A program made the position numbers and the translations under genes. Below the pieces are notes generated by a model that searched no databases, was not told the origin of the DNA, and worked only from the letters and a program-made list of their open reading frames with translations. Below are positions 14,651 through 58,798 of a DNA stretch of 64,000 nucleotides, piece after piece. How positions within the stretch are numbered: position 1 is the first letter of the stretch; every line of letters begins with the position of its first letter. The stretch is from an uncultured Candidatus Binatia bacterium (lineage in GTDB: Bacteria > Desulfobacterota > Binatia > Bin18 > CBDCRK01): assembly GCA_965220955.1 (NCBI GenBank), contig CBDCRK010000037.1, positions 58,928-122,927 of the forward strand, given 5' to 3'.

Positions 14651-15679
14651 ATGAGGAAGCGTAGAATTAAGGCTTCTATGCTGGTGCTCAGCCTGATTTC
14701 CTTTCTCGCCAGTGGATGCGCCATCAAAAGGTGGATCCCTTTTGTTTCTAACAATGAGCCCACTGTAAATCAGTCTCTGGCTGAACGGCCAGACGGTTCA
14801 CAGGGTTCGGTGTTATCTTTTGGCAACGGCAACAAGGCAGAGGGGGGGCTAAACCCACAGTATGTAACCGAGGGGGATCTCCTCAAGATTGTTAACGAGT
14901 TTCAGAACAGTGCCCAGAGAGACACCTACCGTTTTCCCCTGCCTAAAGACATCACTGGTGCCAATGTACTCAAAGCTACACTCACACGGCTTAAAGACTA
15001 CGAGGACGAACACCCCGGCGCTTATCCGGAGCTCATCGAGTTTACCCGGGCACGAGCCTACGAAGGGTTGCATGAGTATGACAAGGCGGTCGAGTCCTAC
15101 CAACAGGTAACCCAGACGAATAGCCGTCTCAGAGATGAGGCAACCAAAGGGCTAGCGGCACTCACCCGCTTCCTCCAACTCAAGTCCCAACCTATTACCG
15201 CAACTACTCCGCTTGAGTATTTAAAGGCCCTTGACCACAATATTACCGCCTGGCAGGAGTTGGTACAGGAGTTTGCCGAAACCCCTTATGCGACCCTTGC
15301 TCAAGAGGAGGAGGAACGGCTGGACTGGGCTAAAGTGGCCTTTCTTGAGCTGAACCGTCACCGGCTTGAAGACGGCAACGCGCTTGTAGTGCTGGCCTGT
15401 CAGCAGCTTATTGCCAAGCACCAGGAAAGCAAAAATCTCTATCGCTATTTGGTTGAGCTAGGCGACTTTTACACCGTGCTTGCCCACGAATATGTAGCGC
15501 AAAATGATCCCGAAGGACTGCGCTTTGATACCAATACATTTGAAGAATTGGGGCAGTCGGCGTTGCGCCTGTACGGGCGGGTAGCCCAGGAGGACGGGAT
15601 TATGGAAAAACTCGAAGCTAGGGGCAAGCTGGCAGCGCTTGAGGCATACATGGCCAAAGTGGGGCGCCTGAGCCGATGA
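14651..15679 (+). CDS. Hypothetical lipoprotein (signal peptide + lipobox LASGC), mostly alpha-helical
   Basis: 342-aa ORF with lipoprotein signal; no recognised domain; stop overlaps the start of the next gene (ATGA). Confidence 0.5.
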   Translation: MRKRRIKASMLVLSLISFLASGCAIKRWIPFVSNNEPTVNQSLAERPDGSQGSVLSFGNGNKAEGGLNPQYVTEGDLLKIVNEFQNSAQRDTYRFPLPKDITGANVLKATLTRLKDYEDEHPGAYPELIEFTRARAYEGLHEYDKAVESYQQVTQTNSRLRDEATKGLAALTRFLQLKSQPITATTPLEYLKALDHNITAWQELVQEFAETPYATLAQEEEERLDWAKVAFLELNRHRLEDGNALVVLACQQLIAKHQESKNLYRYLVELGDFYTVLAHEYVAQNDPEGLRFDTNTFEELGQSALRLYGRVAQEDGIMEKLEARGKLAALEAYMAKVGRLSR

Positions 15680-19457: not shown

Positions 19458-21348
19458 CCTTCTTCCCCCGGGTCGAGGCAAAATACCTTTCCAGAACCTG
19501 CCGAACAACAGGGGCGGCTACTGCTCCTCCACCCTGACCTGCATGTTCAACCAGACAGACTACCACTATCTCAGGGTCCGCAAACGGGGCAAAGGCGATA
19601 AACCAAGCATGGTCTCGGAATTGTCGAGGAAGTTCGGTTTCATCTTCCTTAAGACCAGCCACCGTCTGGGCTGTGCCAGTTTTGCCAGCCACTAAAACAT
19701 TGGACAGCCGAGATTTTTTCCCAGTACCTGGAGGGCTGTTAACAACATCCCGCATGGCCAGCCGAACAAGGTTGAGGATCTCTTGGTCTATTCCTGCAGT
19801 CAGGTTGACCTCCGGATGGTACTCTTCCACTACTTCTCCCTCAACACTTTCTACCCGCCTAACAAGATAGGGCCGATAGACGATTCCGCCGTTAGCAACA
19901 GCCGCGGTGAGCGTTGCCATCTGCAGGGGGGTAACAGACACATACCCCTGGCCTATCGCCACTGACAGGGTCTCCCTCGCACCCCAGGGAACCCCAAATA
20001 TTTTCTCCTTCCATGCTGCCTCAGGAATCACTCCAACCTTTTCATGATCGAGGGTGATCTTGGTGAGCTGACCCAGGCCAAATCTACGGGCATAATTGGC
20101 AATGGCATCGATTCCTAGCTGCTGTCCTATCTGGTAGAAATAGACATTGCACGACTGTACCAACGCCCGATGCAAATCCACCATTCCATGCCCACCCTTT
20201 TTCCAGCAGTGAAAGAAGCGGCCACCAAATCTTAGGCCGCCCCGGCAAAAAAAACGCGTGGAAGGATTAACCATCCCTTCTGCAAGGGCAGCAGCAGCAA
20301 GAACAACTTTAAACGTCGAGCCTGGGGGATACTGCCCCTGAATCACCCGATTGGTAAGTGGGTGGTAGGAGCTAGTAACCAGCTCCTGCCACTCCTCCGG
20401 GCGAATTCCACGAGCAAAAATGTTAGGGTCAAACGCTGGGCGGCTGACCATGGCTAAGACAGCACCGTCCCTCGGGTCAAGGATCACTAGAGCTCCCTCT
20501 TTTCCCGCCATTGCTTTCTCGGCAGCGTCCTGCATGTCCCAATCAAGGGTAAGAATCAGATTGAACCCTGATTGGGCTCCGATTTCTTCTAAGATTCGCA
20601 GCCGCCTGCCCACCGAATCTACCTCAATGTGCTGGAAGCCGTTTCGCCCACGTAAGTATTTTTCCCATCGCTTCTCTGCTCCAAACTTCCCAATCACCTC
20701 TCCCATGTGGTAGTCTGAAAACAGGATGAGTTCCTCTGGGCTGATCTCGCCCACATAACCCAGAAGGTGGGCGGCAAACCCGTTGGACGGATAGCGCCGC
20801 TTGGGGTGCACTTCTACACTCACTCCAGGAATATCAAGCTTATGCGACTCCACCGCTGCCAGTGTCGACCAATCAACGTCCCGCTTGACCACTACTCCCT
20901 CATAAGAAGGCCGACGCAGGCGGCGCGACGAGACACCGTTGGCTAGCTCTTGGCCACCCGGCAGGTACAGGGTAAGAGAATTGAGAGTAGTCTCGATATC
21001 AGGGGTATCCTCAGGTACCAGAACCACATCAAAAGAGGGACGGTTGTCAACCAACACCCTTCCCTTGCGGTCATAAATGATTCCTCGCAACGCCTCTGTC
21101 TGTTTAAGGCGTAGACGATTACTCTCCGAGAGAGCGCGAAAATGCTCTCCCTCAATGGCCTGCAAATACCATAAGCGGAGACATAGAAGACATATCGTCC
21201 CCAGGACAACCGTGCCGACCGTTAAGAGCCGCGGCCAGAGACTAGGAGAATCGAGTAAGAAGTTGGGAGTCTTTTTAAGGAAAGTGCGGTCTAAACGCCA
21301 ACGCCGGGTCTTTCCCCTTGATCTCTGGGCTCTATGCTTCTGATTCAT
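19426..21348 (-). CDS. mrdA: Penicillin-binding protein 2 (elongasome transpeptidase)
   Basis: 640-aa ORF with PBP dimerisation and transpeptidase motifs (STFK, SCN, KTGT) in mre/mrd context. Confidence 0.9.
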   Translation of the reverse strand: MNQKHRAQRSRGKTRRWRLDRTFLKKTPNFLLDSPSLWPRLLTVGTVVLGTICLLCLRLWYLQAIEGEHFRALSESNRLRLKQTEALRGIIYDRKGRVLVDNRPSFDVVLVPEDTPDIETTLNSLTLYLPGGQELANGVSSRRLRRPSYEGVVVKRDVDWSTLAAVESHKLDIPGVSVEVHPKRRYPSNGFAAHLLGYVGEISPEELILFSDYHMGEVIGKFGAEKRWEKYLRGRNGFQHIEVDSVGRRLRILEEIGAQSGFNLILTLDWDMQDAAEKAMAGKEGALVILDPRDGAVLAMVSRPAFDPNIFARGIRPEEWQELVTSSYHPLTNRVIQGQYPPGSTFKVVLAAAALAEGMVNPSTRFFCRGGLRFGGRFFHCWKKGGHGMVDLHRALVQSCNVYFYQIGQQLGIDAIANYARRFGLGQLTKITLDHEKVGVIPEAAWKEKIFGVPWGARETLSVAIGQGYVSVTPLQMATLTAAVANGGIVYRPYLVRRVESVEGEVVEEYHPEVNLTAGIDQEILNLVRLAMRDVVNSPPGTGKKSRLSNVLVAGKTGTAQTVAGLKEDETELPRQFRDHAWFIAFAPFADPEIVVVCLVEHAGQGGGAVAAPVVRQVLERYFASTRGKKDVQQEAPLAF

Positions 21349-35464: not shown

Positions 35465-36013
35465 GATGAGGCTCACAAGATGAGGAGGACTTTTTCTCTA
35501 TTCGGCTTTTTTCAAGCTGGGAGACCAAAGGAGGGAGAAGGGGGCGAGCGACGAAAGAACGGCCTTCCACAGTGGGGGGAGGAAGGGCTGAATAATCGGG
35601 CGGGGTGTCTACGGGCGCCCCGCGGGGTGGAGTAATTAGTTGCTTAATGTGATGGGCATACGAATCGGGTGTGTATGCGAGATGCCATAGATAACATGAG
35701 GCGCCGCAGATTTGGCCACCTTCACTTCCTTGGGTTTCACCTGAGGAGTAATGTGCAGGACAAAGCCATTGCGAGCTGTGAGAAAACGCTGGGGTTTCTG
35801 CGAAGATTGTTGCTGATCCATAGACTATGTTTCTGCCTCATAAAAAATTAGCGTCCGAGGCTGGTAGTCAAGCGCTTACCTCGTCTGGCTGACAGCTGGC
35901 TTCCGACCGCTGAGTCTTTACATAGCATAGTCTTCACTCACCTCCAACTGCTTGCAAGCTACACTACTCCAGTTTATGCTAGGGACAGCAAACAGAGCCG
36001 AAGGAGATTGACA

Positions 36014-36667
36014 ATGGGATTGTCAGATGAGCTGCGCCAGAAGCACGAGACACTGTGGGAAAAAATGGTCATGCATTCGTTTGTCCGAGAGCTGGGTGAG
36101 GGTACGCTGCCGGCAGAGAAATTTATCACCTACTTTGTTCAGGACTATACTTTCCTGGTTGACGCAACCAAGATGATGGCCCTGGCTATTTCCAAGGCGC
36201 CCGATGTAGAGGCCGCACAAAAAATTTCTGCTTTTCTCAATGCAGCGATTACCGGGGAGGAGAGTCTTTTTCGCCGGGGCTTTGAGGAGCTGGGCGTACC
36301 TCCTGGAAGATACACTGGAGCAGAGCTACTTCCTACGGCTCTGTCCTATGCCAATTTCCTTCTGCGCACTGGTCATGAGGGAAGCTTTAACCAGATCCTG
36401 ACAATTCTTATGGTTGTCGAATGGACCTATCTCGATTGGGCAAAGAGGCTGGTAGCACAGGGGAAAAAACCGGTAAGAAAAGTGTATCAGGAGTGGATTG
36501 ACATCCACGTTGCACCAGCCCTGGAAGAGTTTGTTGGCTGGGCAAAGGAGCGAATTGACAACAGTCCAGTGGGCGAGCGAGCGTCTATCGAACAGACATT
36601 TTTAGTTACGCTCCGCTACGAATACCTCTTTTGGGATATGGCGTACCAAGGAGAAAGCTGGCCCTGA
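36014..36667 (+). CDS. TenA/Thi-4 (thiaminase II / heme-oxygenase-like) family protein
   Basis: TenA-like helices (FVQDYTFLVDA, WTYLDWAKR); RBS AAGGAG 7 nt before the ATG at 36014. Confidence 0.7.
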   Translation: MGLSDELRQKHETLWEKMVMHSFVRELGEGTLPAEKFITYFVQDYTFLVDATKMMALAISKAPDVEAAQKISAFLNAAITGEESLFRRGFEELGVPPGRYTGAELLPTALSYANFLLRTGHEGSFNQILTILMVVEWTYLDWAKRLVAQGKKPVRKVYQEWIDIHVAPALEEFVGWAKERIDNSPVGERASIEQTFLVTLRYEYLFWDMAYQGESWP

Positions 36668-36767
36668 GAAAGTCACTGCTGCTCGGCTGAGCTTGCAACT
36701 CAGTCCAAGCCAAAGGTTCACCAGGTTTACAAGGAACCCTGCGGGAACCCCTTCGGAATGCTTTCTC

Positions 36768-37064
36768 TCAATGTCCGATTTCTTCCTCAGAGTTTTCCTC
36801 AATTGCTCCTTCAGCCTGATCGAGGAGGAAGCTCAGCTCACGTAGAGCCTCGTTCATGTGATAGGCTACAGCCAGCAGGGAGCCATAGGCAATCTCTTCC
36901 GTGTCGTGTAGCTTTAGGTGGTCATTGACCATAGAGAGAAGGCTACGCATTTGTTCTTCAGCGTCATAGAGGTGCTCACAAAGACCCATGGTTCCCTCCC
37001 GACCCTGACCTATAAGGCCAAGAAGCATTGATTTCACCATAAGGGAAAAGACTAACAAGGGCAA
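36768..37064 (-). CDS. Small hypothetical acidic protein
   Basis: 98-aa ORF (likely start at the internal ATG giving ~90 aa); no RBS or recognisable domain. Confidence 0.3.
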   Translation of the reverse strand: MPLLVFSLMVKSMLLGLIGQGREGTMGLCEHLYDAEEQMRSLLSMVNDHLKLHDTEEIAYGSLLAVAYHMNEALRELSFLLDQAEGAIEENSEEEIGH

Positions 37065-37154
37065 GGGTAGATCCCTATCCCTCTACTTTTACATAGCCAA
37101 TCGGTGCTTTAGAAAAATCCCACATTGGTACCTTTTGGCAAACGATCTTGCTGA

Positions 37155-37292
37155 GCACCCGGCCTGCCCGTCCCGGCCATTGGGGCGGTGCTCTGGCATG
37201 CCTCGATGGAGACGACGGCTGGCTATGCCAAAGTCGATTTGCCCTTGCTCCAGCAAGTGGCCCAACCCTGGCCGGAGGTGGCGCCATGTTGA
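37155..37292 (+). pseudogene. C-terminal tail fragment of a tyrosine recombinase
   Basis: Short frame ending ...LWHASMETTAGYAKVDLPLLQQ..., matching the extreme C-terminus (LGHAS..TT..Y..V) of phage-integrase-family proteins; nothing upstream. Confidence 0.45.
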
Positions 37293-38030
37293 TGACCGCA
37301 GTCGATACCTACTTAGCCGTACGGCGGGCGGCAGGCTTTCAACTCAACCATCTTGAGGCCTATTTGCGCAGCTTCGCCCGCTTTATGCACGCGGAGAACC
37401 CGCGGCATGAGATCCCCCCCGCAAACCCTCTTCTGTGGGCGGCGCCAGCAACCGACCCCCTATATCTTTAGCGAGGCGGAAATCCAGCGCATTGTGGCTC
37501 ACGCGCGGCAACTCAGTCCCTTGGATTCGCTGCGGCCCTCTACCTACAGCACCCTGTTTGGTCTGCTCGCTGCCACGGGGATGAGTTGCGCGGAAGCTCG
37601 GGCGCTCCAGCTCAGCAATATCACTCCGGCTAGAATCCTCATCCGGGAAAGCAAGTTCAAGAAAAGCCGACTGCTCCCGCTGCACGACACAACCTGGGTG
37701 GCCCTGGAGGGCTACCTCGACCGGCGGCGGCGAGTCGCCGGCCACGATCCGCACCTGTTTGTCTCCCGCCGCGGCGGCAAGCTCTCTCACACCATCGTGG
37801 CCGAAACCTTCCATGCGGTAGTGCAAGCAGCTGGCGTTCCGAGTGAGCCAGGCAAACCCTGCCCCCGGCTCATGGACCTCCGGCATATCCTCGCCGTCCG
37901 CGGGCTCGAGACGTGTCTCGATGGCCGCGATCAAGTCCTTCATGCACTTTCCGGAGTACCGCGTCCCGGCCCACCTGGAGCAGATTCGCTAGGCCCTGGC
38001 CATCCCCGCAAAAAAACCAGCAGCCCCTGA
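37286..38030 (+). pseudogene. Tyrosine recombinase / phage-integrase family gene disrupted by at least two frameshifts
   Basis: N-terminal SAM-like domain (MLMTAVDTYLAVRRAAGF..LEAYLRSFARF) in one frame and the catalytic domain (IRESKFKKSRLLPLHD..HLFVSRRGGKL..LRHILAV) in another; the C-terminal HxxR..Y region shifts again. Confidence 0.6.
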
Positions 38031-38090
38031 TCCCGCATCTCTCCCTCACAGAATGTTAAGCTTGGCATCAACGAGGAGGAATTTTATCGC

Positions 38091-38633
38091 TTGGCGGATG
38101 AAAACAGCGATGGAGAGTACCTTGACGGAAGGATTGTCATGCATTCGCCTGCCTCAAATCGGCACGAGGATACTTCCCGTTTTCTCCTCACCCTCCTGAG
38201 CGCCTACCTGGATGAAAAAAGAGCAGCGGTGGGGCGCGGCTCCCGTTATCCGAGGCGTCTCGATGCCAGCTGGTCCCCGGAGCCTGATATCCTGGTAGTC
38301 CGCAAGAGTCGCCGGCAGCTTATGACGTCCCGCCGTTTGGAAGGGCCCGCCGATATGGTCATCGAGATCGCTTTGGAGAGCGACCCCAGGCTGGACTACC
38401 GTGAAAAGCTCCCACGCTATCGCCAGGCAGAGATCGAGGAGATCTGGATCATCAATCCCTTCGAGAACGATATCCTGGCGGAGGTAAAAACAACGGCCGG
38501 CTACACCACGCAGGTCCTGTCCTCGGGACAGCTAAGGTCCAAGGTACTGCCCGGTTTCTGGATCGAGGTCTCCTGGTTCTGGCAGGAGGAGTTGCCGCCA
38601 ACGCTCAGGTGCCTACGAGAAATCATGCAATAA
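38091..38633 (+). CDS. Uma2 family (DUF820) putative endonuclease
   Basis: EYLDGRIVMHSPA...PDILVV...EIALESD...Y..A.IEEIWIINP pattern of Uma2/PD-(D/E)xK; the frame stays open ~20 codons upstream without an ATG, so the start is uncertain (TTG at 38091). Confidence 0.6.
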   Translation: MADENSDGEYLDGRIVMHSPASNRHEDTSRFLLTLLSAYLDEKRAAVGRGSRYPRRLDASWSPEPDILVVRKSRRQLMTSRRLEGPADMVIEIALESDPRLDYREKLPRYRQAEIEEIWIINPFENDILAEVKTTAGYTTQVLSSGQLRSKVLPGFWIEVSWFWQEELPPTLRCLREIMQ

Positions 38634-45714: not shown

Positions 45715-47250
45715 CTATGTCCCTGATGTCATGCGGTTACGCACCATACGATTAACAGCTTCGGCAGTTTCACTAGCCCTATTTTCAAGCGCAGCAATTT
45801 CTTCCAACCACAGATGCTTTGCCTGGTGATCTTTCACCGCGGCAGCGTTGACACGCACATTGAGGGCGGCAGCCTGGGCGGCAGCCAACGCCAGATTGGC
45901 AGCAGAACCGGCGTCGGAGAGGGCGTTAAGGTTGCTCTTTTCAGCCACAATGACAGCCAGGCCCAACACCTTCGTAGCATCACGTGCGACACACAGCGGC
46001 ACAGCCGCTGCACCGTACAGAGCTCGCTCGATAGCAGTGTCTCGCACTGCCGTTGCAGCACTAGAGTCCTGCGGCAGTTTATAGGCACGCATCATGGCAT
46101 CAAAGGCGGTGATATCAGCGCCTACGCTGCCCGTAAGGTCAGCACGCAGCTTGTTGGCAGCACTACACACTTTCTCCATCTCGGGAGCAACGTCAGCATA
46201 TGGCTTTTTGCCAATGGTAAGATGAGCCACCATGGCCACCAGTGCAGCAGCCATGGCCCCGGTATATGCCGCTGCTGCACCGCCACCCGGTGTTGCCGTT
46301 CCTGCAGCAAGTGAGTCAAGAAAGGCATTGGCGGTCTCCTCTACGCCCTGCGGTTGTTCGGGCATGGACAGTTTGTTTTCAAAAACCTGCTCGTCTTGCA
46401 GTCCATCCAATTGTAAATACCACTGGGCCGCGTCGATAAGGGCAGTATGGGGAATCAGACCAATAAGTTCAGAGCGCAGGATGTTGGTTCCATAGCGTGC
46501 GGCCTCGTGGCGCACCATTTCCACAACCCGGTGCACAGGCGTCTGGCGAAAGTCGGTCAGGTTCATGCTCACCTGGGCCTGCCCGCCAACGAGCAGGCCC
46601 AGGGCTTTGACATATTGCAGACCTCCGGAGGAATGGCGGACGGCGCGAGCAACCTTTTTAGCAATGCCCACGTCAGACGTGTTGAGGTATACATTATAGG
46701 CAATGAGGAACGGGCGCGCACCCATGACAGTGGCACCAGCTTTACCCAGACGCATCGGACCGAAGTCTGGCTTACGGTTAGGATTAGTCCCGATTTCATC
46801 CTTCAATCCCTCGTACTGGCCGCGGCGGATGTTCTCCAAATTCTGCCGATCAGGACGCGTAGCTGCCGCCTCATACAAGTACACTGGGATACCCAGCTCA
46901 CTCCCCACCCGTTCACCCAGCCGGCGAGCCATGGCAACACAATTGTCCATAGTGGCATGGCGGATGGGGACAAAGGGCACAACATCGGTGGCGCCGATAC
47001 GCGGGTGCACGCCCGCGTGTTGATCGAGATCGATTAACTCGGCAGCCTTGACGATCCCAACGAATGCTCCGGCTTCCACAGCAGCTGAGTCGCCCACAAA
47101 AGTGATTACGGTACGGTTATGATCGAGATCGGAGCTGACATTGAGTATCCGCACGCCTGATACCGTCCTAATCGCTTCCACAATGGCCTGTACTACTTCA
47201 GGGCGGCGTGCTTCAGAAAAGTTGGGAATACATTCGACAAGTTCGGACAC
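45715..47250 (-). CDS. Bifunctional glutamate formimidoyltransferase / formimidoyltetrahydrofolate cyclodeaminase (FTCD-like)
   Basis: N-terminal FTCD_N/FTCD domains (MSELVECIPNFSE...) and a C-terminal all-alpha cyclodeaminase domain; GTG start. Confidence 0.8.
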   Translation of the reverse strand: MSELVECIPNFSEARRPEVVQAIVEAIRTVSGVRILNVSSDLDHNRTVITFVGDSAAVEAGAFVGIVKAAELIDLDQHAGVHPRIGATDVVPFVPIRHATMDNCVAMARRLGERVGSELGIPVYLYEAAATRPDRQNLENIRRGQYEGLKDEIGTNPNRKPDFGPMRLGKAGATVMGARPFLIAYNVYLNTSDVGIAKKVARAVRHSSGGLQYVKALGLLVGGQAQVSMNLTDFRQTPVHRVVEMVRHEAARYGTNILRSELIGLIPHTALIDAAQWYLQLDGLQDEQVFENKLSMPEQPQGVEETANAFLDSLAAGTATPGGGAAAAYTGAMAAALVAMVAHLTIGKKPYADVAPEMEKVCSAANKLRADLTGSVGADITAFDAMMRAYKLPQDSSAATAVRDTAIERALYGAAAVPLCVARDATKVLGLAVIVAEKSNLNALSDAGSAANLALAAAQAAALNVRVNAAAVKDHQAKHLWLEEIAALENRASETAEAVNRMVRNRMTSGT

Positions 47251-50458: not shown

Positions 50459-50493
50459 GAGAAACGGTGGTCAAGAAGGGAAGGGAAGAGAAT

Positions 50494-50925
50494 ATGCCAG
50501 AAGATTCAGGACAAAATTGGGTAGTGAGACGTTATGAATGTAGGGTCGAGAAGCAGTTAGAGAAGCTTAGAAATGTTCTTGAACAGGATGTTAATCAAAT
50601 GAACATCCTGCTTGGCGAGAAAAGTGAGTGGTGGTTCGATGTTTCTGATCCAGGTTTGCTTGAATCTGAATCTGGATGTGAGGTCAGAAAAGTTGATAAG
50701 TATACTCGATCTCTCGTTTCCGTTGGGTCAGAGAACACAGTTTCCTTTATCTTGGAAAAGCAAGCAATTCATGTAAAGCACGATGGTAAAGAACTATTCA
50801 AGGTTCAGCTTGAGTGGAATGGGCGGCAGAGCCATTGTGACCTCAAGATTGATGGGGAGACCTATGAACTTTGGGAAATATCCCATATAGCCCTGGGTCC
50901 TTTCTTCTTTGAGGGCAAGTTTTAG
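50494..50925 (+). CDS. Hypothetical protein (paralog A of a duplicated gene)
   Basis: ORF 50467..50925; start set at MPEDSGQNWVV by analogy with paralog B (MPEEDLGPDWVV) and the GGGAAGGGAAG RBS. Confidence 0.5.
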   Translation: MPEDSGQNWVVRRYECRVEKQLEKLRNVLEQDVNQMNILLGEKSEWWFDVSDPGLLESESGCEVRKVDKYTRSLVSVGSENTVSFILEKQAIHVKHDGKELFKVQLEWNGRQSHCDLKIDGETYELWEISHIALGPFFFEGKF

Positions 50926-51870
50926 AAAGTCAGGAGGTCAGGCAGGAGTAGCTGAGCTGTTTTCCATCCATAAGTCTGACCATTGCGGTCATGCGATCCA
51001 AGATAGAGAGTGGCCGCAGGTTATGGCGGCCCACAAACTCGTTCACGTACCTGCCCAAGTGCTTCACGCTCATTTTATGGTAGACGCCATAGTGCCCACG
51101 TTTAAGGAGTGCCCAGAAGCTTTCTATGCCGTTAGTGTGAACCATGCCCGAAACGTACTGGCCGGCACTATGTCTGACAGAGTGGTGGTTTTTCAGGTCA
51201 ATATAGCCGCCATGGTCGTCCGTAAAGACAAGGGCGTCCTCTGGCTATTCGTTCTTCAACAAACTTCTGTAGAGTGGCTTTATCGGTGCCGAGAGACACC
51301 ATGGCTTTTAGCTGGTTAGTCCCACGGTCCAAGATCCCTAACACGGGAGTCTTACCGGCTGTCCCTCTACCCGAGCGTAGTTTCTTGTCTCCGTGCTTAT
51401 TCTTCTCTCTTCCGCCCACATAGGTTTCATCTACTTCTACCGGGCCCACACAAACCGAGAGTCATTATCATTCCATATTTCCCTTATGCGGTGCGCCAGA
51501 TGCCAGGCTGTTTTCTGGGTAATACCAAGGTCACGGGCAAGCCGAACGCTCGACACACCTTAACACTGGTGCTTATCATGTAGAACGCCAGAGCCCAGCC
51601 CTGAAATCCAAGCTTGGAGCTCTGCATTGGGGTTCCCGTCTTTACTGAGAAGTCTCTCCTGCAATGCCGGCAATGGTAAGGCTGGGGCTTGCGGTGGGGC
51701 GAAGGTATAGGTCTCGTGATTCACACTTCGGACACCGTATACCGCCCGGCCAGCGAGCCTCTATAAACCATTTCTCAGCCGTAGCATCGTCAGGGAATTT
51801 ATGAAGTAACTGGGCCAGCGAGAGTTGTTTCTCCATACACCCTAATGATAGCAAAGGCGTATAACATCTT
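50926..51870 (-). mobile_element. IS1595-family insertion sequence remnant; transposase split into three frames
   Basis: Minus-strand pieces: N-terminal zinc-ribbon (51642..51854, ...RWPGGIRCPKCES...), central DDE region (51198..51449, ...DETYVGG...) and C-terminus (50930..51145, ...NGIESFWALLKRGHYGVYHKMSVKHLGRYVNEF...). Confidence 0.7.
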
Positions 51871-51882
51871 AAAGGAGGATCT

Positions 51883-52290
51883 ATGCCAGAAGAAGATCTA
51901 GGACCAGATTGGGTAGTGAGACGTTATGAATGTGGGGTCGAGAAGCAGTTCCTTAAGCTTAGGAATGTTCTTAAAGGTGATGTTAGTAAAATGAACGTCC
52001 TGCTTGGCAAGAAAAGTGAGTGGGAGTTCAGTGTTCCTAAGCTAGCTGCTTTTGAAACATATAAAATTGATGTCGTAAAAGAGCACAAGTCTATGTCTCT
52101 CCTTCGGTCAGAAAGCACAGTTTCCTTTACCTTGGAAAACCAGACAATTCATGTAGCGCAGGGTGATAAAGAACTATTTAAGTAGAGCTTGCCTGGAATG
52201 AAAGGCAAAGCCATTGTGACCTGAAGATCGACGGTGAACCTTATGAGCTTTGGGAAATCTCTCAGAGAGCATTAGGACCTTTGAGGATTA
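51883..52290 (+). pseudogene. Paralog B of the 50494..50925 gene, carrying a frameshift/premature TAG
   Basis: First 100 aa collinear with paralog A, then TAG at 52183-52185; the remaining homologous C-terminus (...CDLKIDGEPYELWEIS...) continues in another frame (apparent 1-nt deletion) and runs into the convergent peptidase gene. Confidence 0.5.
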
Positions 52291-53697
52291 TTTCCCCAAC
52301 TCCTCTAAGACCTCTATCAAGGTTTGCGTGCCTGAGATCAGGCTTTCTAAAGAGATTCGCTCATTGAGTCCATGCACGCGCCGAGACTCCCCCTGAGCAA
52401 GTGTGATAGCGGTAAAACCGTAGCTAACAATGTCCTTTCTGCGAAAGTAGTGAGAGTCAGTGAATCCCACTAAAATGCCCGGTACTACAGGGGCCTCGGG
52501 GTGATGGCGAGAAGCCACGGTTTGGATCGTACGGAAAAGCTCAGTGTCCGTCTTAGAAGCAAGGGACGGAAAGTTAAGCAAAATGGAAAAGCGCACCTGG
52601 GGGTCATCTGCCACTTGTTCCAACTCGGCAATAAACTTCTGCGGGTCTTCTCCGGGGAGTAGACGACAGTCAAGCTGAGCCGTGGCCTGGGCAGGAATCA
52701 CATTCGTTTTATTGCTTCCTGAAATAACGGTGGGCACAATGGTATTGCGTACCAGCGCATTGTAAAGGGGGTTAGCCATAAACTCCTGACGAAAGGTAGG
52801 GTCTTTAAGTGCCTGGGTCAGGTCGCGATAGTGCTCTCGTTTGGCTGGCTCTTCCTGCTCCGCCAGGGCCGTGAAAAACTCCTGCACTGCTGGCACAACC
52901 TTGACCTCGGTCTCATGGAGGCGAATCTTTTCCAGAGCACGGATCAGGCGTGTCACCGCAGTCTCGGGCAACGGAACCGAACCATGTCCGGCCTGGCCGC
53001 TAGCTGCCAACTGGACCCAGCAGGGGGCTTTCTCTGCCACGGCCACGGAGTAAGACCTCTTGCCGTCTTTCATCCTGATTCCTCCACCCTCGTTGAGCAG
53101 AAACTCGGCATCGGCAATAAGATCAAAATGGTTATCCACAAACCACCCGGCCCCTAGCTTCCCCCCTGTCTCTTCATCCGCTGTCCCTAGGAATATGATA
53201 TCACGCTTAAGTAGCGTGCCCATCCGCTTAAGCAGAGCCATGGCAAGAAACTCAACCGTTCCCACCCCTTTGCAATCCATTGCTCCCCGGCCGTACACAT
53301 ACCCATCTTTGATCACACCAGCGAAGGGATCAACTTCCCAGCCCACTTTTGTGGCTGGTACTACATCAAGGTGATTGAGTAGTATCACTGCCTTTTTTTC
53401 CCCTGTGCCCTTGAGTCGAGCGTATACTATTCCTCGCCCCGGCTGGGACTCAAATACCTGGGCAGGAATTCCCTCCTGAGCAAATCGCTCCTGGAAGAAC
53501 TTGGCTGCAGGAGTTTCGTTTCCTGGCGGGTTGGTGGTGTCGATTTGAATATAGTGGCTAAGCAGATCACCCGCTTCCTCCTGGACCACGCTCCAGTCTA
53601 CCTCAGTTGCCCAGGCAACCCGAAGGACAAAGCAAAAGGAGAAAAAACAGAGGGGAATCACAAATTTACGGAGAACCAGAGCCATCTTAACCCCCAC
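52288..53697 (-). CDS. M20 family metallopeptidase (ArgE/DapE/CPG2/PM20D1-like), secreted
   Basis: Signal peptide; M20 motifs (NHLDVVP, GRGAMDCKG, TADEETGG). Confidence 0.8.
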   Translation of the reverse strand: MGVKMALVLRKFVIPLCFFSFCFVLRVAWATEVDWSVVQEEAGDLLSHYIQIDTTNPPGNETPAAKFFQERFAQEGIPAQVFESQPGRGIVYARLKGTGEKKAVILLNHLDVVPATKVGWEVDPFAGVIKDGYVYGRGAMDCKGVGTVEFLAMALLKRMGTLLKRDIIFLGTADEETGGKLGAGWFVDNHFDLIADAEFLLNEGGGIRMKDGKRSYSVAVAEKAPCWVQLAASGQAGHGSVPLPETAVTRLIRALEKIRLHETEVKVVPAVQEFFTALAEQEEPAKREHYRDLTQALKDPTFRQEFMANPLYNALVRNTIVPTVISGSNKTNVIPAQATAQLDCRLLPGEDPQKFIAELEQVADDPQVRFSILLNFPSLASKTDTELFRTIQTVASRHHPEAPVVPGILVGFTDSHYFRRKDIVSYGFTAITLAQGESRRVHGLNERISLESLISGTQTLIEVLEELGK

Positions 53698-53868: not shown

Positions 53869-54570
53869 TTAGGAAGCAGCTATAGCCCGCTCGATGCCAT
53901 CAAAGAACTGCCACCACATATCAAGCGAGCAGTTGAGGGCCAAACGCACTCTTTCTTGCCACTCCTCCGTAGTGGCGTGACGCACAACAATGTGATCACC
54001 TACATCGCTGTGATCCTTATCTGCCTCTTCGTGTATATCCCAAAAAGCAACCTGAGCGCTGGTAAGTCCGTAGTGCTTTTCCAGGGAACGGGCAAAGGGA
54101 CTAAAGCTGCCTGGCACCTGTCCCTCAGCCGCAAGGTTGATGGCTGCTGCTCCTTCAATAAAAGAGCGCTGCTTGGTAGACAGCTCAAACCAATTGATGA
54201 GCGTAGCAGTAGCTGGTAAGGGCTCGCCATAGACTATCTGCTCACGGGACAGCCCCAGCCCCTGGCCAAAACGGACGAATAGCTCAGGGTGAGGGAGGTT
54301 GCAACCCGAGATCTTACCTGTCTCTTCTTCGAAGAGGCTCTCGGCCAGCTTGATCCGCTCTTCAGCAAACGGACAATTGGCATGCATAGCGCTCACTGCC
54401 CGAGGAAACTCACGCACCTGCAGGAAAAATTGTACGGCCCAGGTCTGCATCTGCAGGAGCGTAAGTTCTCCCTCCATAATCTTGAGCCAGAGCGGGTGGC
54501 GACCAAACGTTCGCTTGGCCTGGATTGTCTCCATCAAATCTTGCACAAATTCTCGGTTTGACACGGTCAT
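53869..54570 (-). CDS. PqqC-like / heme-oxygenase-like (TenA_C/CADD-like) family protein
   Basis: Strong similarity to the PqqC pattern (RHPLWLKIMEGELTLLQMQTWAVQFFLQVREFPRAVSAMHANCP...LFVRFGQGLGLSREQI); start at the internal ATG (54570), whose ATGA overlaps the ribBA stop. Confidence 0.6.
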   Translation of the reverse strand: MTVSNREFVQDLMETIQAKRTFGRHPLWLKIMEGELTLLQMQTWAVQFFLQVREFPRAVSAMHANCPFAEERIKLAESLFEEETGKISGCNLPHPELFVRFGQGLGLSREQIVYGEPLPATATLINWFELSTKQRSFIEGAAAINLAAEGQVPGSFSPFARSLEKHYGLTSAQVAFWDIHEEADKDHSDVGDHIVVRHATTEEWQERVRLALNCSLDMWWQFFDGIERAIAAS

Positions 54571-55838
54571 AGAGTTGCCCTCTTTAAAGATTCCTTCCCT
54601 CCTCGATTGTAAGCTGCAGGTTGTGGGTTTCGTTTTCTCGACGCAGAAGGAGTACGCCGCTGAGAGGGAACGCTCAACGGCACACACTCAACAATCTCCA
54701 AACCATATCCAGGTAAACTCACCAAACGGGGCGGATTATTAGTGAGGAGCCGCATTTTTCTCACCCCCATATCTCGTAGGATCTGGGCGCCAATGCCATA
54801 GTCACGAAAGTCGCGTAACCGGGAGGTTAGGCTTGTGCTTAGCTGGCGTGATTTCTTACTGCGACCTTTTCCATCCAAGCCATGGTCGCGAAAGAGGTCT
54901 GTTCCTCGTCCCTCCTGCCGCAGGTAGAGGATCACCCCTTTCCCCTCAGCAGCAATGATCTCCATTGCCTGGTGAAGAAGGGCTCCCGTATTGCGGCGGG
55001 CGTAACCAAACACATCCCCTGGCAGATACTCGGTATGGGCCCGCACCAGCACTGGCTCCTTGGGGTTAATCTTTCCCTTGACTAGGACTAGATGCTCCTC
55101 TTCATCCACGTCACTGATATAAACGCAGGCAGTAAAGTCGCCGCCATAGCGGCTTGGCACCTTTGCTTCCGCCACCCGGTGAACTAGGGAATCATGCCGC
55201 AGACGGTATTGGACAAGGTCAGTAATGGTAGCGATCTTAATCCCATGCCGGGCGGAGAACTTCTCGAGGTCTGGCAACCGCGCCATGGTACCATCATCCT
55301 TCATAATCTCGCAGATCACTCCAGCGGGTTTAAGCCCAGCGAGGCGTGCAAGATCCACGGATCCTTCGGTTTGCCCAGTACGCACAAGCACCCCGCCTCT
55401 GCGGGCACACAGGGGAAACATATGTCCCGGAGTCACTAGGTCCTCGGACCGTGTGTTGTCACGGATGGCAGTAAGAATGGTGGTGGCCCGGTCCTCCGCC
55501 GAAACTCCCTTACCTACTCCATAGCGGGCATCAATAGAGACGGTAAATGCAGTGCCTAAGGGCGCAGTGTTTTTGCTCACCATCATGGATAGGCCGAGCG
55601 CATCAACCTGCCCCGCAGTCAGGGGTAGACAGATGAGCCCTCTACCGTACTTAGCCATGAAATTGATCGCCGCCGGCGTTACTTTCTCCGCTGCTAGGCA
55701 AAGGTCTCCCTCATTCTCTCGATCTTCATCGTCCATAAGGATGATCATCTGGCCAGCACGGGTTTCCTCGATTGCCTCTTCAATCGAGACCACATAGGAA
55801 CTCTTGTACACTGGAGTAGGTAGTGGTGTCGAAAACAT
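54567..55838 (-). CDS. ribBA: RibBA-like: 3,4-dihydroxy-2-butanone-4-phosphate synthase fused to a degenerate GTP cyclohydrolase II-like domain
   Basis: N-terminal RibB motifs intact (DDEDRENEGDL...); in the RibA-like domain the zinc-ligand region reads HTEYLPGDVFGYARRNTG instead of HSECLTGDxFGSxRCDCG, so all three Cys are absent, and the following catalytic stretch is also divergent. Confidence 0.7.
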   Translation of the reverse strand: MFSTPLPTPVYKSSYVVSIEEAIEETRAGQMIILMDDEDRENEGDLCLAAEKVTPAAINFMAKYGRGLICLPLTAGQVDALGLSMMVSKNTAPLGTAFTVSIDARYGVGKGVSAEDRATTILTAIRDNTRSEDLVTPGHMFPLCARRGGVLVRTGQTEGSVDLARLAGLKPAGVICEIMKDDGTMARLPDLEKFSARHGIKIATITDLVQYRLRHDSLVHRVAEAKVPSRYGGDFTACVYISDVDEEEHLVLVKGKINPKEPVLVRAHTEYLPGDVFGYARRNTGALLHQAMEIIAAEGKGVILYLRQEGRGTDLFRDHGLDGKGRSKKSRQLSTSLTSRLRDFRDYGIGAQILRDMGVRKMRLLTNNPPRLVSLPGYGLEIVECVPLSVPSQRRTPSASRKRNPQPAAYNRGGKESLKRATL

Positions 55839-56461
55839 TGTTTTCCTCCAAAGAATAGTGACCCTATCTTATATCCTGCCTACCCTAGCAATGTAAAGAT
55901 GCAACTACCCGGCTAAACAGTCACTGGGAGTAGTAGGAGTTTGCTGGCTCTATTTGTCAAAACATATAGAATTTTCTATATGTTACGCTGATTGGTCAAG
56001 AGGCGAAGATCGTATATGCTAAGCGAATTGGCAAAGAATCAGCTGAATGTTTTCAATCATCGGCCAGACTCTGAATATACCAAGAGACGGTTAGGCTTCC
56101 CAAGCGCGGTATTTCTATTAGGCCGATTGACCAGTATCTCTACGTAACATTCCAGGGGTCGGGCTACACAGGCCCCTTACTCGTTTTAGACCACTTATTT
56201 AATCTGACCCTGGTCTTAATCCTCTTTGCTCTCTGCGCCAGCACCGGAAGTTTAGTGCTAGTAGGATGGGGCTATACCTTATATACATAGGGTTACGACA
56301 TTGGGTGAAGGTGGGTTGAGGCATTGTGAAAGAGGGTATGGTGGAGGGGAATGAGTTAAGGAAAGAATTGCATTGCGACCCGTTAGGCTTTCGTCTATTT
56401 TGGGACAGCATAAAAAACAGGCCTCAAAGGCAAATAAAAACCCGTTCACCAGGAGGACGTG

Positions 56462-58798
56462 ATGGCAGGCGCTTTAGACGGCGTGCGGATTGTCGAATTG
56501 GCCCAAGGCATTGCCGGACCCTATACTGGTATGCTGCTCGCCGAACAGGGAGCAGATGTTATCAAAATCGAACCCCCTCAAGGGGATAAAGCCAGAGGTA
56601 CGCCAGGGTTTCATGTCTGGAATCGTAGCACGCGAAGCGTCATTGCTGACCCTGCAACTGCTGAAGGCAAAGACTTCATCCTCAGTCTTGCCTCTACTGC
56701 TGATATTGTTCTAACTGACTATCAGCCCGAAGAAGTAGAGAAACTTGGCCTAAACTACGAGGTTTTTTCTCAAGATAACCCCGGTCTTATTTACTGCCAC
56801 CTTCCTGCCTACGGCGGCTACGGCCCGCATGCTGGCCGCTATCCCGACGACACGCTAGTGGCCGCAGTGAGCGGCCTTCTGGGTAGTCAATGGTCTCACC
56901 GTGACGGTGGGGTATACCTGGTGCTTCCTATTGCTAGTTATGGGGCGGCCTTTGTTGCCAGTAGTTCCATCTCTGCTGCTCTCTTCGAGCGGGAGGGAAG
57001 TGGAAGAGGACAAAAGATTGAGGTTTCGTGGCTGGCTGGAGCCTTTGCTATGCAGAGCGGCACTATTCTTTATCACCCTGAATTGCTTCGCTTGTTCAGT
57101 GGCCGTCTCAACCCCCTAGGCCCAATCCCGGTCTATCGCCTGTATAAGGCTAAAGACGACTGGCTCTTTGTGGCTTGTGGGAACACAACCTTCTGGAACA
57201 AATTTTGTCTGGCACTTGAGCATCCGGAGTGGACTTCTGATCCACGTTACGAGAAGGCACCCTGGGGAATTGCCCCAGAGGACCGGGATGAACTCGCGGA
57301 GAGGATTGCTGCTGTCATTGCCGGTAAACCCCGTGAGGAATGGCTACGCATTCTACGAGAGTATGACGTGCCTTCTGCTCCGGTAACTAGTCGTCAGGAG
57401 TTCATTGATCACCCTCAAACTATCCACAATGGCATGCGGGTAGAAGTAGATGATCCGAAACTGGGCAAGACCGTGCAGATGGGGGTACCGGTGCGTATGT
57501 ATACAACCCCTGGGACCATTAAAGGACCTGCCCCATTGCTGGGACAGCATACAGACGAAGTCAAAAGAGAGGGAGTGAGGGCAGGTTTCAAACCTGCCCT
57601 CACCTCTTCATATTCTTCTTACCCTCTCCAGGGGGTCCTTGTTCTCGACTTTGCCAGCTACATTGCTGGCACCTATGGCCCCATGGTGCTGGCTCAGCTT
57701 GGAGCTACGGTCATCAAGGTTGAGTCGCTTCAGGGAGATGCGTTTCGCGCTTTTGGCTTTGGCTTCCTGGGATGGAATCAGGGGAAAAGGGGCATTTCCG
57801 TCAACCTGAACCAACCCGAGGGACGGGAGGTTATTTACGACCTGGTACGCAAGGCTGATGTTGTGGTGGAAAATCTCCGGCCCGGTGCCACAAAGCGCTA
57901 CGGTATTGACTATAAGACTCTCTCTGAGATCAATCCTCAATTGATTCATGCCACAGTTACGGGTTTTGGCTCTAGTGGCCCGGACCACAACCAGCCGGCG
58001 TTTGATCCTCTCCTCCAAGCTCGCTCCGGAATCATGCAAGCTCAGGGTGGGCACGGGCATCCGCCTTTCTATCTCACCTGTGGAGTGTGTGATTATGCTG
58101 CCGCACTGCTCAGCGCCTATGGTGTCTGTGCCGCCCTCTATGCCCGTAGACGAGGGGGTAAAGGCCAGAGGATTGAGACTTCTCTTTCCCAGGCTTCTAT
58201 TGCGGTACAGTCAGGAAGTTTTATTTTCTACAAAGGCCGGCCGGATTTAGAGAACGGCGGGCCAGACTTATGGGGAACCAGTGACCTGTATCGCATTTAC
58301 CTCACTGCCAACAACTCCCTCTTTCTTGCTGTTCTAGAAGACCCCCACTGGCAGGCACTCTGCAGTGCTATTCGGCGAACGGACCTGAGCGACCGTTACA
58401 GTTTCCATCAGGCTTGCCGGGAAAGTGTGGAAAGCCCGCTGGGAGAGATACTGGCAGAAATCTTCGCAAGCAAGACAACCGAAGAGTGGGTCTCACTCCT
58501 GGATACCGTTGGGGTCCCCTGCGCGCCGATATTACCCCTTCCTCAACTCTTTAGCGACGAGCACGTTGTGGCCAACGACCTACTTGCCACCCACACCCAC
58601 CCCCAGTGGGGTGAAGTACGACAGACCGGCATCTTTGCTAAATTCTCCCGCACCGCCGCAACCGTTCCCTATGCAGCCCCACTCCTGGGACAGCACACCA
58701 CGGAGGTGTTGCAAGAGGTGGTAGGATACGATGAGGAGAGAATTCAAATGCTGCTGAACGCTGGTGTCATCAAACAGGCGCTGTGGAAGAATCAATGA
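56462..58798 (+). CDS. Fusion of two family-III CoA-transferase (CaiB/BaiF) domains
   Basis: 779 aa; two complete CoA_trans_3 units, each starting with the GxRIVELAQGIAGPY / GVLVLDFASYIAGTY glycine-rich motif; RBS AGGAGG before the ATG at 56462. Confidence 0.75.
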   Translation: MAGALDGVRIVELAQGIAGPYTGMLLAEQGADVIKIEPPQGDKARGTPGFHVWNRSTRSVIADPATAEGKDFILSLASTADIVLTDYQPEEVEKLGLNYEVFSQDNPGLIYCHLPAYGGYGPHAGRYPDDTLVAAVSGLLGSQWSHRDGGVYLVLPIASYGAAFVASSSISAALFEREGSGRGQKIEVSWLAGAFAMQSGTILYHPELLRLFSGRLNPLGPIPVYRLYKAKDDWLFVACGNTTFWNKFCLALEHPEWTSDPRYEKAPWGIAPEDRDELAERIAAVIAGKPREEWLRILREYDVPSAPVTSRQEFIDHPQTIHNGMRVEVDDPKLGKTVQMGVPVRMYTTPGTIKGPAPLLGQHTDEVKREGVRAGFKPALTSSYSSYPLQGVLVLDFASYIAGTYGPMVLAQLGATVIKVESLQGDAFRAFGFGFLGWNQGKRGISVNLNQPEGREVIYDLVRKADVVVENLRPGATKRYGIDYKTLSEINPQLIHATVTGFGSSGPDHNQPAFDPLLQARSGIMQAQGGHGHPPFYLTCGVCDYAAALLSAYGVCAALYARRRGGKGQRIETSLSQASIAVQSGSFIFYKGRPDLENGGPDLWGTSDLYRIYLTANNSLFLAVLEDPHWQALCSAIRRTDLSDRYSFHQACRESVESPLGEILAEIFASKTTEEWVSLLDTVGVPCAPILPLPQLFSDEHVVANDLLATHTHPQWGEVRQTGIFAKFSRTAATVPYAAPLLGQHTTEVLQEVVGYDEERIQMLLNAGVIKQALWKNQ

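Follow-up and report, generated by a model that had tools for sequence, protein, structure and literature searches.

The 64,000-nucleotide stretch of DNA analyzed here (hereafter, the window) carries on its minus strand a ribBX-type gene followed directly by a gene for a predicted CADD-related heme-oxygenase-like two-metal oxidase (HDO) (Table 1). Minus-strand bases 54570-54567 read ATGA, so that the TGA stop codon of ribBX shares bases with the ATG of the oxidase gene, just as the preliminary description of this locus had claimed. This ATG is backed by homologues of 230-240 aa with the same start position, and a Shine-Dalgarno-like AGAGGG lies 6 nt upstream of it. The same overlap was found in a relative, L112, whose RibBX is 85% identical, and ATGA overlaps also occur in two further gene pairs of the window (15676-15679 and 21345-21348), indicating that the overlap as such is ordinary. 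Besides the oxidase gene, the neighbors of ribBX in the window are genes for a CoA-transferase and an M20 peptidase.

Table 1. Coordinates of the ribBX-oxidase locus within the window, with the basis for each assignment.
Feature	Position	Strand	Basis or description
ribBX-type gene, 423 aa	54567..55838	-	Predicted DHBP synthase domain and cysteine-less GTP-cyclohydrolase-II-like X domain
RibB (DHBP synthase) domain, residues 17-215	55194..55790	-	Gapless alignment to V. cholerae RibB (7UEZ)
X domain, residues 220-390	54669..55181	-	Predicted GCHII fold homologue without catalytic residues; aligned to 2BZ0 and 4I14
Former zinc loop (Tyr271, Arg282, Thr284)	54987-55028	-	Alignment to 2BZ0 and 4I14
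Replaced catalytic loop	Residues 313-346		Alignment to 2BZ0 and 4I14
Putative CADD-related HDO gene, 233 aa from ATG	53869..54570	-	PF14518, 100.9 bits
ATGA stop/start overlap, ribBX to oxidase gene	54567..54570	-	Direct sequence reading
Promoter-like TTTACA-N18-TATAAG upstream of ribBX	55868..55897	-	Kept in the window, L112, and L113
GGAGG Shine-Dalgarno of ribBX, after the promoter-like element	55845-55849	-	

The promoter-like element upstream of ribBX fails the strict rule of the consensus scan, and its promoter function is therefore putative. Neither an FMN riboswitch nor any other known RNA was detected at gathering thresholds across the window, and a relaxed search of 55700-56600 (E ≤ 10) returned chance-level RNA matches only. 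A perfect palindrome, AACATATAGAA-AA-TTCTATATGTT (55961-55984), was considered as an operator shared by ribBX and the oxidase gene, and this idea was dropped because the palindrome occurs in the window species only and is missing from L112, from the second close relative L113, and from all other loci. No pqq genes or further rib genes were present among the scanned ORFs of the window, which comprised every ORF with a length of 150 aa or more and a few smaller ones, with pqqA and pqqD being too small to show. Similarly, the window and 0.86 Mb of other loci contained no stand-alone ribA, only X domains and the canonical RibBA of unrelated organisms. Literature searches on riboflavin in Binatota and on RibA cysteine numbering yielded nothing useful.

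The C-terminal half of the ribBX product matches PF00925 (GTP_cyclohydro2) end to end (162 bits, residues 221-387), and E. coli RibA (2BZ0) and M. tuberculosis RibA2 (4I14) served as references for its alignment at the residue level. The zinc cysteines of RibA, with roles reportedly described by Kaiser 2002 and Ren 2005, are replaced at all three positions (Cys54 by Tyr271, Cys65 by Arg282, and Cys67 by Thr284), Tyr105 is replaced by His319, and the YxLQxxGxDTVxAN segment is swapped for an unrelated basic, low-complexity stretch. Arg128 of RibA is retained as Arg345, as are the RxHxE, QEGRG, and LLTNNP motifs. No shifted cysteines were found in residues 216-390, where the single cysteine, Cys238, is not conserved, and the zinc loop contains neither a conserved cysteine nor an alternative histidine cluster. 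The three zinc cysteines are absent from all of the 120 closest homologues (120/120), which, where a source gives them a name, are labeled Candidatus Binatia or Deltaproteobacteria. Compared with the window protein, the homologues show 74% and 84% identity in the two folded parts of the X domain, 78% in the RibB domain, and 42% in the replaced loop. The X domain is as well conserved as the RibB domain, a pattern which suggests selection across the clade. The TIGR00505 (ribA) score of 123.6 is below the cut-off of 205.85, and the NCBIfam models for bifunctional RibBA all fall short as well (462.8 vs 569, 450.1 vs 513, and 444.7 vs 764), so that the protein has neither a passing score nor the Cys54/65/67 triad of a bifunctional RibBA; its GCHII-homologous C-terminal domain without zinc cysteines and ring-opening residues is that of RibBX. 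These alignments bear out the earlier claims that the RibA half lacks its three zinc-ligand cysteines and that its catalytic segment has diverged, and they answer the concern, also raised there, that the zinc ligands might merely be shifted. As judged from these substitutions, the X domain is very unlikely to open the imidazole ring of GTP. An AF2 model of RibBX was of low confidence (pLDDT 65.9, with low-confidence stretches at 269-283 and 308-347), and because of this it was used solely as weak support for possible disorder in the replaced X-domain loops.

The N-terminal half matches PF00926 (DHBP_synthase; 277 bits, residues 20-211) and passes the ribB model TIGR00506 (231 vs a cut-off of 177.45), providing the DHBP synthase domain with which RibBX proteins begin. 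In the gapless alignment to V. cholerae RibB (7UEZ), in which residue n of the query corresponds to n-2 of the reference, Gln156 (codon 55371-55373) occupies the position of the metal-ligand histidine of the GHTE motif (V. cholerae His154), and Lys110 that of Thr108. All Binatia-type loci have GQTEG, compared to GHTE in canonical loci, and Gln156 is invariant across the clade irrespective of whether the oxidase gene is adjacent. Different residues (K, R, S, H, N, or T) occur at the relaxed Thr108 position, and the Binataceae RibB additionally has His137 replaced by Tyr. Among the catalytic residues checked, R40, E41, E43, D45, C70, D116, R117, R153, T157, E158, and E177 are conserved clade-wide, with D116E in a few non-Binatia loci as the sole exception. 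The RibB half had been called canonical, which holds for its passing model score and for these remaining active-site residues but not for the Gln156 and Lys110 positions. The presence of Gln in place of the GHTE histidine in a whole clade had been overlooked in that sequence-only reading. We considered whether Lys110 might substitute for the metal ligand lost by the His154 to Gln change, but residue 110 is not constant within the clade, whereas Gln156 is invariant, and the idea was rejected on these grounds. His154 of RibB is a metal ligand (PMC9305975, PMC5228156), and since the Gln at this position is clade-wide and the V. cholerae His154Ala variant was reported to be inactive (PMC5228156), DHBP synthase activity of the window protein is not assured.

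The partner protein had been described as PqqC-like, to be classified as PqqC, CADD-type, or TenA_C. Its six metal ligands (E82, H94, E149, H180, D184, and H187) are all present and invariant in its family, consistent with the heme-oxygenase-like fold and two-metal ligand set of CADD-type proteins. The CADD model TIGR04305 is its best NCBIfam match, although with a score of 121.9 under the cut-off of 200, and the PqqC model TIGR02111 gives 54.9 under a cut-off of 240. The best PDB sequence matches, 9PJ4 (6.5e-21), 1RCW, and 8VA9, are 4-aminobenzoate synthases, and the best fold match of its AF2 model (pLDDT 91.3) is CtCADD (TM 0.83/0.89). The sacrificial Tyr27, relay Tyr43, and amine-donor Lys152 are essential in CADD and N. 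europaea NePabS (PMC11965152), whereas the oxidase has Trp28, Trp44, and Phe159 at these positions; within its family Trp28 is invariant, the Tyr43 position holds Phe or Trp, and the Lys152 position holds Phe or a variable residue. The Tyr/Tyr/Lys signature was found in 21 of 93 full-length representatives, which are 30-47% identical to CADD and 35-67% identical to NePabS, and the oxidase, 31% identical to CADD, falls outside this group. These features indicate a predicted CADD-related two-metal oxidase that is neither PqqC nor, because Trp/Trp/Phe replace Tyr27/Tyr43/Lys152, a CADD-type p-aminobenzoate synthase. The PqqC-like label consequently does not carry over to function, and the classification resolves toward CADD relatedness but not toward the Tyr/Tyr/Lys group. 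Given that the self-sacrificing Tyr and the Lys of CADD are absent, the substrate of the oxidase is probably a free small molecule.

Conservation of the pair proved to be narrow. Apart from the window species, direct adjacency of ribBX and the oxidase gene was found in L112 and L113 only, whose RibBX are 83-85% identical to that of the window, and none of the 80 other ribBX loci had the oxidase gene within 6 kb of ribBX. In the closest of those 80 loci (72-77% identity) the order is ribBX-hslO-M20, with hslO in the slot of the oxidase gene, and oxidase homologues of 65-75% identity occur in at least five unrelated contexts elsewhere. A looser, same-strand ribBX-dsbD-oxidase order is present in 16 Binataceae loci, where a dsbD-like gene separates the two genes, which lie ~2 kb from each other. 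The dsbD-like and hslO neighbors of ribBX, for their part, are conserved. The ribBX-oxidase linkage is thus weak and is not the operon signature of a pathway, and because the presumably co-transcribed arrangement is confined to a narrow lineage, gene order has probably brought the two together by accident. Conservation of the pair in related genomes, which the preliminary description had proposed as a check, was therefore seen in L112 and L113 and, loosely, in Binataceae, but not in the other 80 loci, and the suggestion made there that the pair marks a different small-molecule pathway is not supported. Adjacency in three species together with the 16 Binataceae loci may still reflect a weak functional or regulatory link.

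Based on the data presented above, we favor, with moderate confidence, a reading in which a Binatia-lineage RibBX has acquired a lineage-local oxidase neighbor through gene order, rather than the two forming a dedicated two-enzyme pathway. The N-terminal domain would most likely still make 3,4-dihydroxy-2-butanone 4-phosphate for riboflavin synthesis. The X domain would descend from a GTP cyclohydrolase II, having lost zinc binding and ring opening but being retained in a structural or regulatory role as a folded module without catalysis, and GTP cyclohydrolase II itself would presumably be encoded by another gene outside this locus. The oxidase appears to belong to a tight, vertically inherited orthologue group, mostly from Binatia where the sources name them, of putative two-metal, O2-activating heme-oxygenase-like oxidases related to CADD. 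In the window lineage its gene would have landed right behind ribBX, in the slot filled by hslO in the closest other sampled lineages, and it would now depend on the ribBX promoter for its transcription, with the ATGA overlap coupling its translation to that of ribBX, the pairing being one of local gene order.

A genuine two-enzyme pathway, in which RibBX provides DHBP or another four-carbon unit derived from pentose phosphate and the oxidase converts it to a new small molecule, would account for the operon-like coupling that the window species shares with L112, the adjacency in L113, and the same-strand order in the 16 Binataceae loci, and the altered RibB metal ligand could signal changed chemistry. 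We nevertheless consider it quite improbable, as the oxidase is missing from 80/80 other ribBX loci, its homologues stand alone in at least five unrelated neighborhoods, hslO takes the same slot in the closest other loci, and Gln156 is clade-wide independent of oxidase adjacency. It is unlikely, too, that both RibBA-like halves are dead or repurposed, leaving a pseudoenzyme or regulator in a conserved ribBX-dsbD-hslO redox-stress neighborhood and riboflavin synthesis to other genes. The invariant Gln at the His154 position, the relaxed Thr108 position, the additional His137 to Tyr change of Binataceae, the reported inactivity of the His154Ala variant, the lack of a rib operon context and of an FMN riboswitch, and the conserved dsbD-like and hslO neighbors are all consistent with that idea. 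However, the amide oxygen of Gln is an acceptable Mg2+ ligand, the RibB domain scores above its equivalog-domain cut-off, and the other catalytic residues checked are conserved save for the few D116E loci.

That the protein has remained a bifunctional RibBA, with a cyclohydrolase that uses other metal ligands, is scarcely credible: the end-to-end GTP_cyclohydro2 match and the kept Arg128, RxHxE, QEGRG, and LLTNNP speak for it, but the loop is poorly conserved in sequence and has neither a conserved Cys nor a His cluster that could stand in for the triad, Tyr105 is replaced, the DTVEAN segment is missing, and the protein is below every RibA and RibBA cut-off. We regard as highly unlikely the possibility that the oxidase makes p-aminobenzoate in the manner of CADD and NePabS, with the operon coupling riboflavin and folate cofactor supply. 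Its best PDB, NCBIfam, and fold matches and its complete set of six ligands would fit, but all three residues essential in those enzymes are replaced, its TIGR04305 score is under the cut-off, and it lies outside the 21 Tyr/Tyr/Lys representatives. There is also a slim chance that either a RibBA-like protein with changed chemistry in both halves takes part, together with the CADD-like oxidase, in a small-molecule route linked to redox or stress, or the oxidase sacrifices its own invariant Trp28 in place of the Tyr27 of CADD, releasing an indole-derived metabolite.

The main consequences concern annotation and mechanism. RibBX-type genes are named 'DHBP synthase/GTP cyclohydrolase II' by JGI, which for ribBX is at best half right, and the oxidase family is named 'pyrroloquinoline-quinone synthase', which is wrong; Binatia pathway reconstructions that trust these names would falsely credit these bacteria with both GTP cyclohydrolase II and PQQ synthesis. 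A clade-wide Gln at a RibB metal ligand thought to be essential provides a cheap test case for a one-metal RibB mechanism, and the oxidase family shows that a large, tightly conserved CADD-like family exists without the sacrificial residues.

Among known systems, PqqC (1OTV/1OTW) has the same fold as the oxidase (TM 0.86/0.79) but is cofactor-less and lacks four of the six ligands, five of the six corresponding positions being occupied by His, Gly, Arg, Ser, and Asn. CADD (C. trachomatis CT610) and NePabS (N. europaea NE1434) are closer, sharing the seven-helix heme-oxygenase-like fold, the E/H/E/H/D/H ligands, and a stand-alone gene with no obligate partner; besides the three replaced residues, the oxidase differs from them in a family-specific SGCNLP insertion with its invariant Cys90. 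The canonical bifunctional RibBA of M. tuberculosis (RibA2, 4I14) has the same two-domain architecture and length as the ribBX product (355.7 bits over residues 18-392), in contrast with which the window protein lacks the Cys triad, Tyr105, and the DTVEAN segment, its best bifunctional model score being the 462.8 given above. The 373-aa protein of PDB 6MNZ, which we take to be A. baumannii RibBX although its database name is DHBP synthase only, aligns over both halves of the window protein; it retains GHTE, whereas the window RibB has Gln at the His154 position.

The fusion of RibB to a RibA-like X domain devoid of the cysteines has been described as the RibBX class (Brutinel 2013, Nouwen 2021, summarized in PMC10012899), in which the X domain is inactive and modulates RibB (PMC10012899). 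The ribBX-type gene of the window appears from its sequence to be a Binatia example of this type, so that the arrangement, although put forward as non-standard for riboflavin, is not new in kind. With the RibBX of Shewanella oneidensis, Aeromonas salmonicida, Bradyrhizobium ORS285, and Acinetobacter baumannii it shares an N-terminal DHBP synthase, a GCHII-homologous domain without zinc and ring-opening residues, and conservation of the X domain, which is therefore likely to be functional but non-catalytic. It differs in coming from Binatia-type bacteria rather than Proteobacteria and in lying outside any ribD-ribE-ribBX-ribH operon, the main rib operon in Proteobacteria. Moreover, its X domain gives 136.7 bits to M. 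tuberculosis RibA2 and 91.2 to E. coli RibA, but only 49.9 to the X domain of 6MNZ, and because it is much nearer to real RibA, its degeneration was probably independent of that in the known RibBX. RibBX-type degeneration has probably arisen at least twice more outside Proteobacteria, in the Binatia type described here and in the type represented by loci L106-L111.

The ribBX protein, which joins a RibB (DHBP synthase) domain to a RibA-like (GTP cyclohydrolase II-like) X domain, matched the Pfam models DHBP_synthase (277 bits) and GTP_cyclohydro2 (162 bits) end to end and passed the NCBIfam ribB domain model (231, cut-off 177.45), but failed the ribA model (123.6, cut-off 205.85) and every bifunctional model. 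A residue-by-residue comparison of the X domain with M. tuberculosis RibA2 (4I14) and E. coli RibA (2BZ0) places Tyr271, Arg282, and Thr284 at the positions of E. coli Cys54, Cys65, and Cys67, reportedly the zinc ligands (Kaiser 2002, Ren 2005); Tyr105 is replaced by His319, a basic, low-complexity stretch stands in for the YxLQxxGxDTVxAN segment, and Arg128 is retained as Arg345. A bioRxiv paper describes C55 of A. baumannii RibA as a zinc site. The missing triad and failed models support the prediction, already made in the preliminary description, that the cyclohydrolase half would be catalytically dead. All three cysteines are absent from 120 of the closest 120 homologues (66-100% identity), whose named sources are metagenome-assembled genomes of Candidatus Binatia or 'Deltaproteobacteria'; the first position holds Tyr, Phe, or His and the third invariably Thr. 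Against the window protein they are 78% identical over RibB and 74% and 84% over the two folded stretches of the X domain; the figure drops to 42% for the replaced loop and 17% for the tail. As judged from sequence, the cysteine loss is a clade property under selection rather than gene decay. Canonical RibBA genes from the same metagenome scan retain CxxxxxxxxxxCxC and DTVEAN. Loci L106-L111 encode a third, unrelated cysteine-less RibBA type with an independently degenerate C-terminal domain (QTA.V.RDVF...), and the RibB half of most of these proteins retains GHTE.

The RibB half aligned without gaps to V. cholerae RibB, in which His154 of the GHTE motif coordinates the catalytic Mg2+ together with Glu39 and a His154Ala mutant was reported inactive (PMC9305975, PMC5228156). 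This histidine is Gln156 in the window protein and Gln in every Binatia-type locus (L007-L096), while canonical loci retain His. The Thr108 position, variable across the clade, is Lys in the window protein. The RibB half, called canonical in the preliminary description, is not fully so. The remaining catalytic residues checked are kept clade-wide, except for D116E in a few non-Binatia loci; Binataceae RibB additionally carries His137 to Tyr. Because a glutamine oxygen can ligate Mg2+, the RibB domain is probably active despite Gln156.

The downstream partner had been labeled PqqC-like. It matched Haem_oxygenas_2 (100.9 bits) and, in part, TENA_THI-4 in Pfam, and its top PDB sequence matches were the 4-aminobenzoate synthases 9PJ4 (by its residue numbering N. 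europaea NePabS) and 1RCW and 8VA9 (both CADD), with PqqC well below. TIGR04305 (121.9) and PqqC (54.9) both fell short of their NCBIfam cut-offs. The AF2 model (pLDDT 91.3) had CtCADD as its top fold match (TM 0.83/0.89), and the metal ligands E82, H94, E149, H180, D184, and H187 are invariant among 121 family members, whereas most of the six are missing in PqqC. With its PqqC score below cut-off, PqqC ranked low in the PDB, and all six two-metal ligands intact, a PqqC identity was rejected, and the gene is better described as a predicted CADD-related two-metal oxidase from a large uncharacterised family. In CADD and NePabS, Tyr27, Tyr43, and Lys152 are essential (PMC11965152). In the oxidase family, by contrast, Trp invariably stands at the sacrificial Tyr27 position, Phe or Trp replaces the relay Tyr43, and Phe or a variable residue takes the place of the amine-donor Lys152. 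An exhaustive search found the Tyr/Tyr/Lys signature in 21 of 93 full-length representatives, which share 30-47% identity with CADD and 35-67% with NePabS. The window oxidase (31% identity with CADD) falls in the uncharacterised majority without it. Cys66 is likewise invariant in the family, as is Cys90 within an SGCNLP insertion (window residues 88-93) that immediately precedes ligand His94; this insertion is missing in CADD, NePabS, and PqqC.

Reading of the sequence confirmed the reported gene overlap, the ribBX stop TGA sharing bases with the oxidase ATG (ATGA), though such overlaps are commonplace (two further cases in the window). On all four contigs of the window species the oxidase directly follows ribBX with this overlap; the pair is also adjacent in two relatives, L112 (RibBX identity 85%; ATGA) and L113 (83%; short spacer with GGAGG). 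None of 80 other ribBX-type metagenome loci (38-77%) had an oxidase in the available flank (up to 6 kb), which lends no support to the distinct small-molecule pathway proposed earlier. In most Binatia loci ribBX is followed by a dsbD-like gene and often then hslO, and the closest of the 80 (72-77%) read ribBX-hslO-M20 peptidase (hslO 305.5 bits vs 244). Sixteen Binatus/Binataceae genomes have ribBX-dsbD-oxidase-gyrB-gyrA, with ribBX and oxidase ~2 kb apart, and oxidase homologues (65-75% identity) lie beside glycosyltransferases, enoyl-CoA hydratases, acyl-CoA dehydrogenases, DUF3014, or P450/E1 dehydrogenase. These neighbourhoods indicate that the linkage is lineage-restricted and loose. Since the window order is ribBX-oxidase-M20, the oxidase occupies the slot held by hslO (Hsp33) in the closest loci (L032-L034, L037, L042, L044, L046, L049); a second such alternation, after ribBX-dsbD, distinguishes L039, L041, L048, L052, L053, and L084 (hslO) from L007-L026 (oxidase). 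That the oxidase recurs in the hslO position in two lineages is noteworthy, yet falls short of marking a pathway.

A GGAGG Shine-Dalgarno sequence precedes ribBX, and an Rfam search detected neither an FMN riboswitch nor a member of another family. The palindrome upstream occurs once in the window (chance expectation, none) and was not found in the 83-85% identity relatives. In L112 and L113, too, a homologue of the CoA-transferase gene is found upstream of ribBX and is encoded on the other strand. Apart from M20 after ribBX-hslO in the closest loci, neither M20 nor the formiminotransferase-cyclodeaminase showed a specific link to the pair in other genomes. Within 50467-52185, immediately beyond the downstream side of the M20 gene, GC content dips to 0.49; together with the transposase fragment and its flanking paralogous ORFs, this points to local rearrangement. 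The methyltransferase region may be an orphan methylase or restriction-modification remnant.

Positions of the gene pair and surrounding features in the window
Feature	Position	Strand	Remarks
ribBX ORF	54567-55838	minus	423 aa
Gln156 codon	55371-55373		in ribBX
Oxidase ORF	53869-54570	minus	233 aa; downstream of ribBX
Promoter-like element	55868-55897	minus	TTTACA-N18-TATAAG; 5' of ribBX; kept in two related contigs
Perfect palindrome	55961-55984		AACATATAGAA-AA-TTCTATATGTT; ~65 nt upstream of promoter-like element
Double family-III CoA-transferase	56459-58798		fused, 779 aa; two CoA_transf_3 domains; divergent from ribBX
Region with N6_N4_Mtase (DNA methyltransferase-like) gene	59203-61318		gene overlaps 245-aa ORF without Pfam match
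M20 peptidase	52288-53697		signal peptide; 171 bp downstream of oxidase
Paralogous ORFs	50467-50925, 51883-52185		flank transposase fragment
IS1595-type transposase fragment	51198-51449	minus	
Formiminotransferase-cyclodeaminase	45715-47250		folate-dependent; 7 kb from pair
TenA/thiaminase-II-like gene	36008-36667		second heme-oxygenase-fold gene; TIGR04306 115.9 bits, cut-off 130
Region with TenA-like gene	36008-38633		adjoining phage-integrase fragment and Uma2 endonuclease gene

The preliminary description regarded the pairing of this fusion with a PqqC-like gene as a non-standard riboflavin or PQQ arrangement; RibB joined to a dead RibA is itself of a described kind. RibBX proteins, functional RibB fused to a degenerate RibA-like domain, have been described from Proteobacteria, Shewanella among them; their X domain is without zinc-binding and ring-opening residues and GCHII activity yet still modulates RibB, and ribA is supplied separately (PMC10012899, which summarises Brutinel 2013 and Nouwen 2021). 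The Binatia X domain scored 136.7 and 91.2 bits against true RibA domains and 49.9 bits against the X domain of the two-domain protein 6MNZ, and this greater closeness to true RibA points to degeneration independent of the 6MNZ type. Unlike proteobacterial ribBX, the window gene lies outside any rib operon, with no rib genes among the scanned ORFs of the 64-kb window. With its DHBP synthase and cysteine-less RibA-like domains, it adds a member from outside the Proteobacteria to the already known RibBX class.
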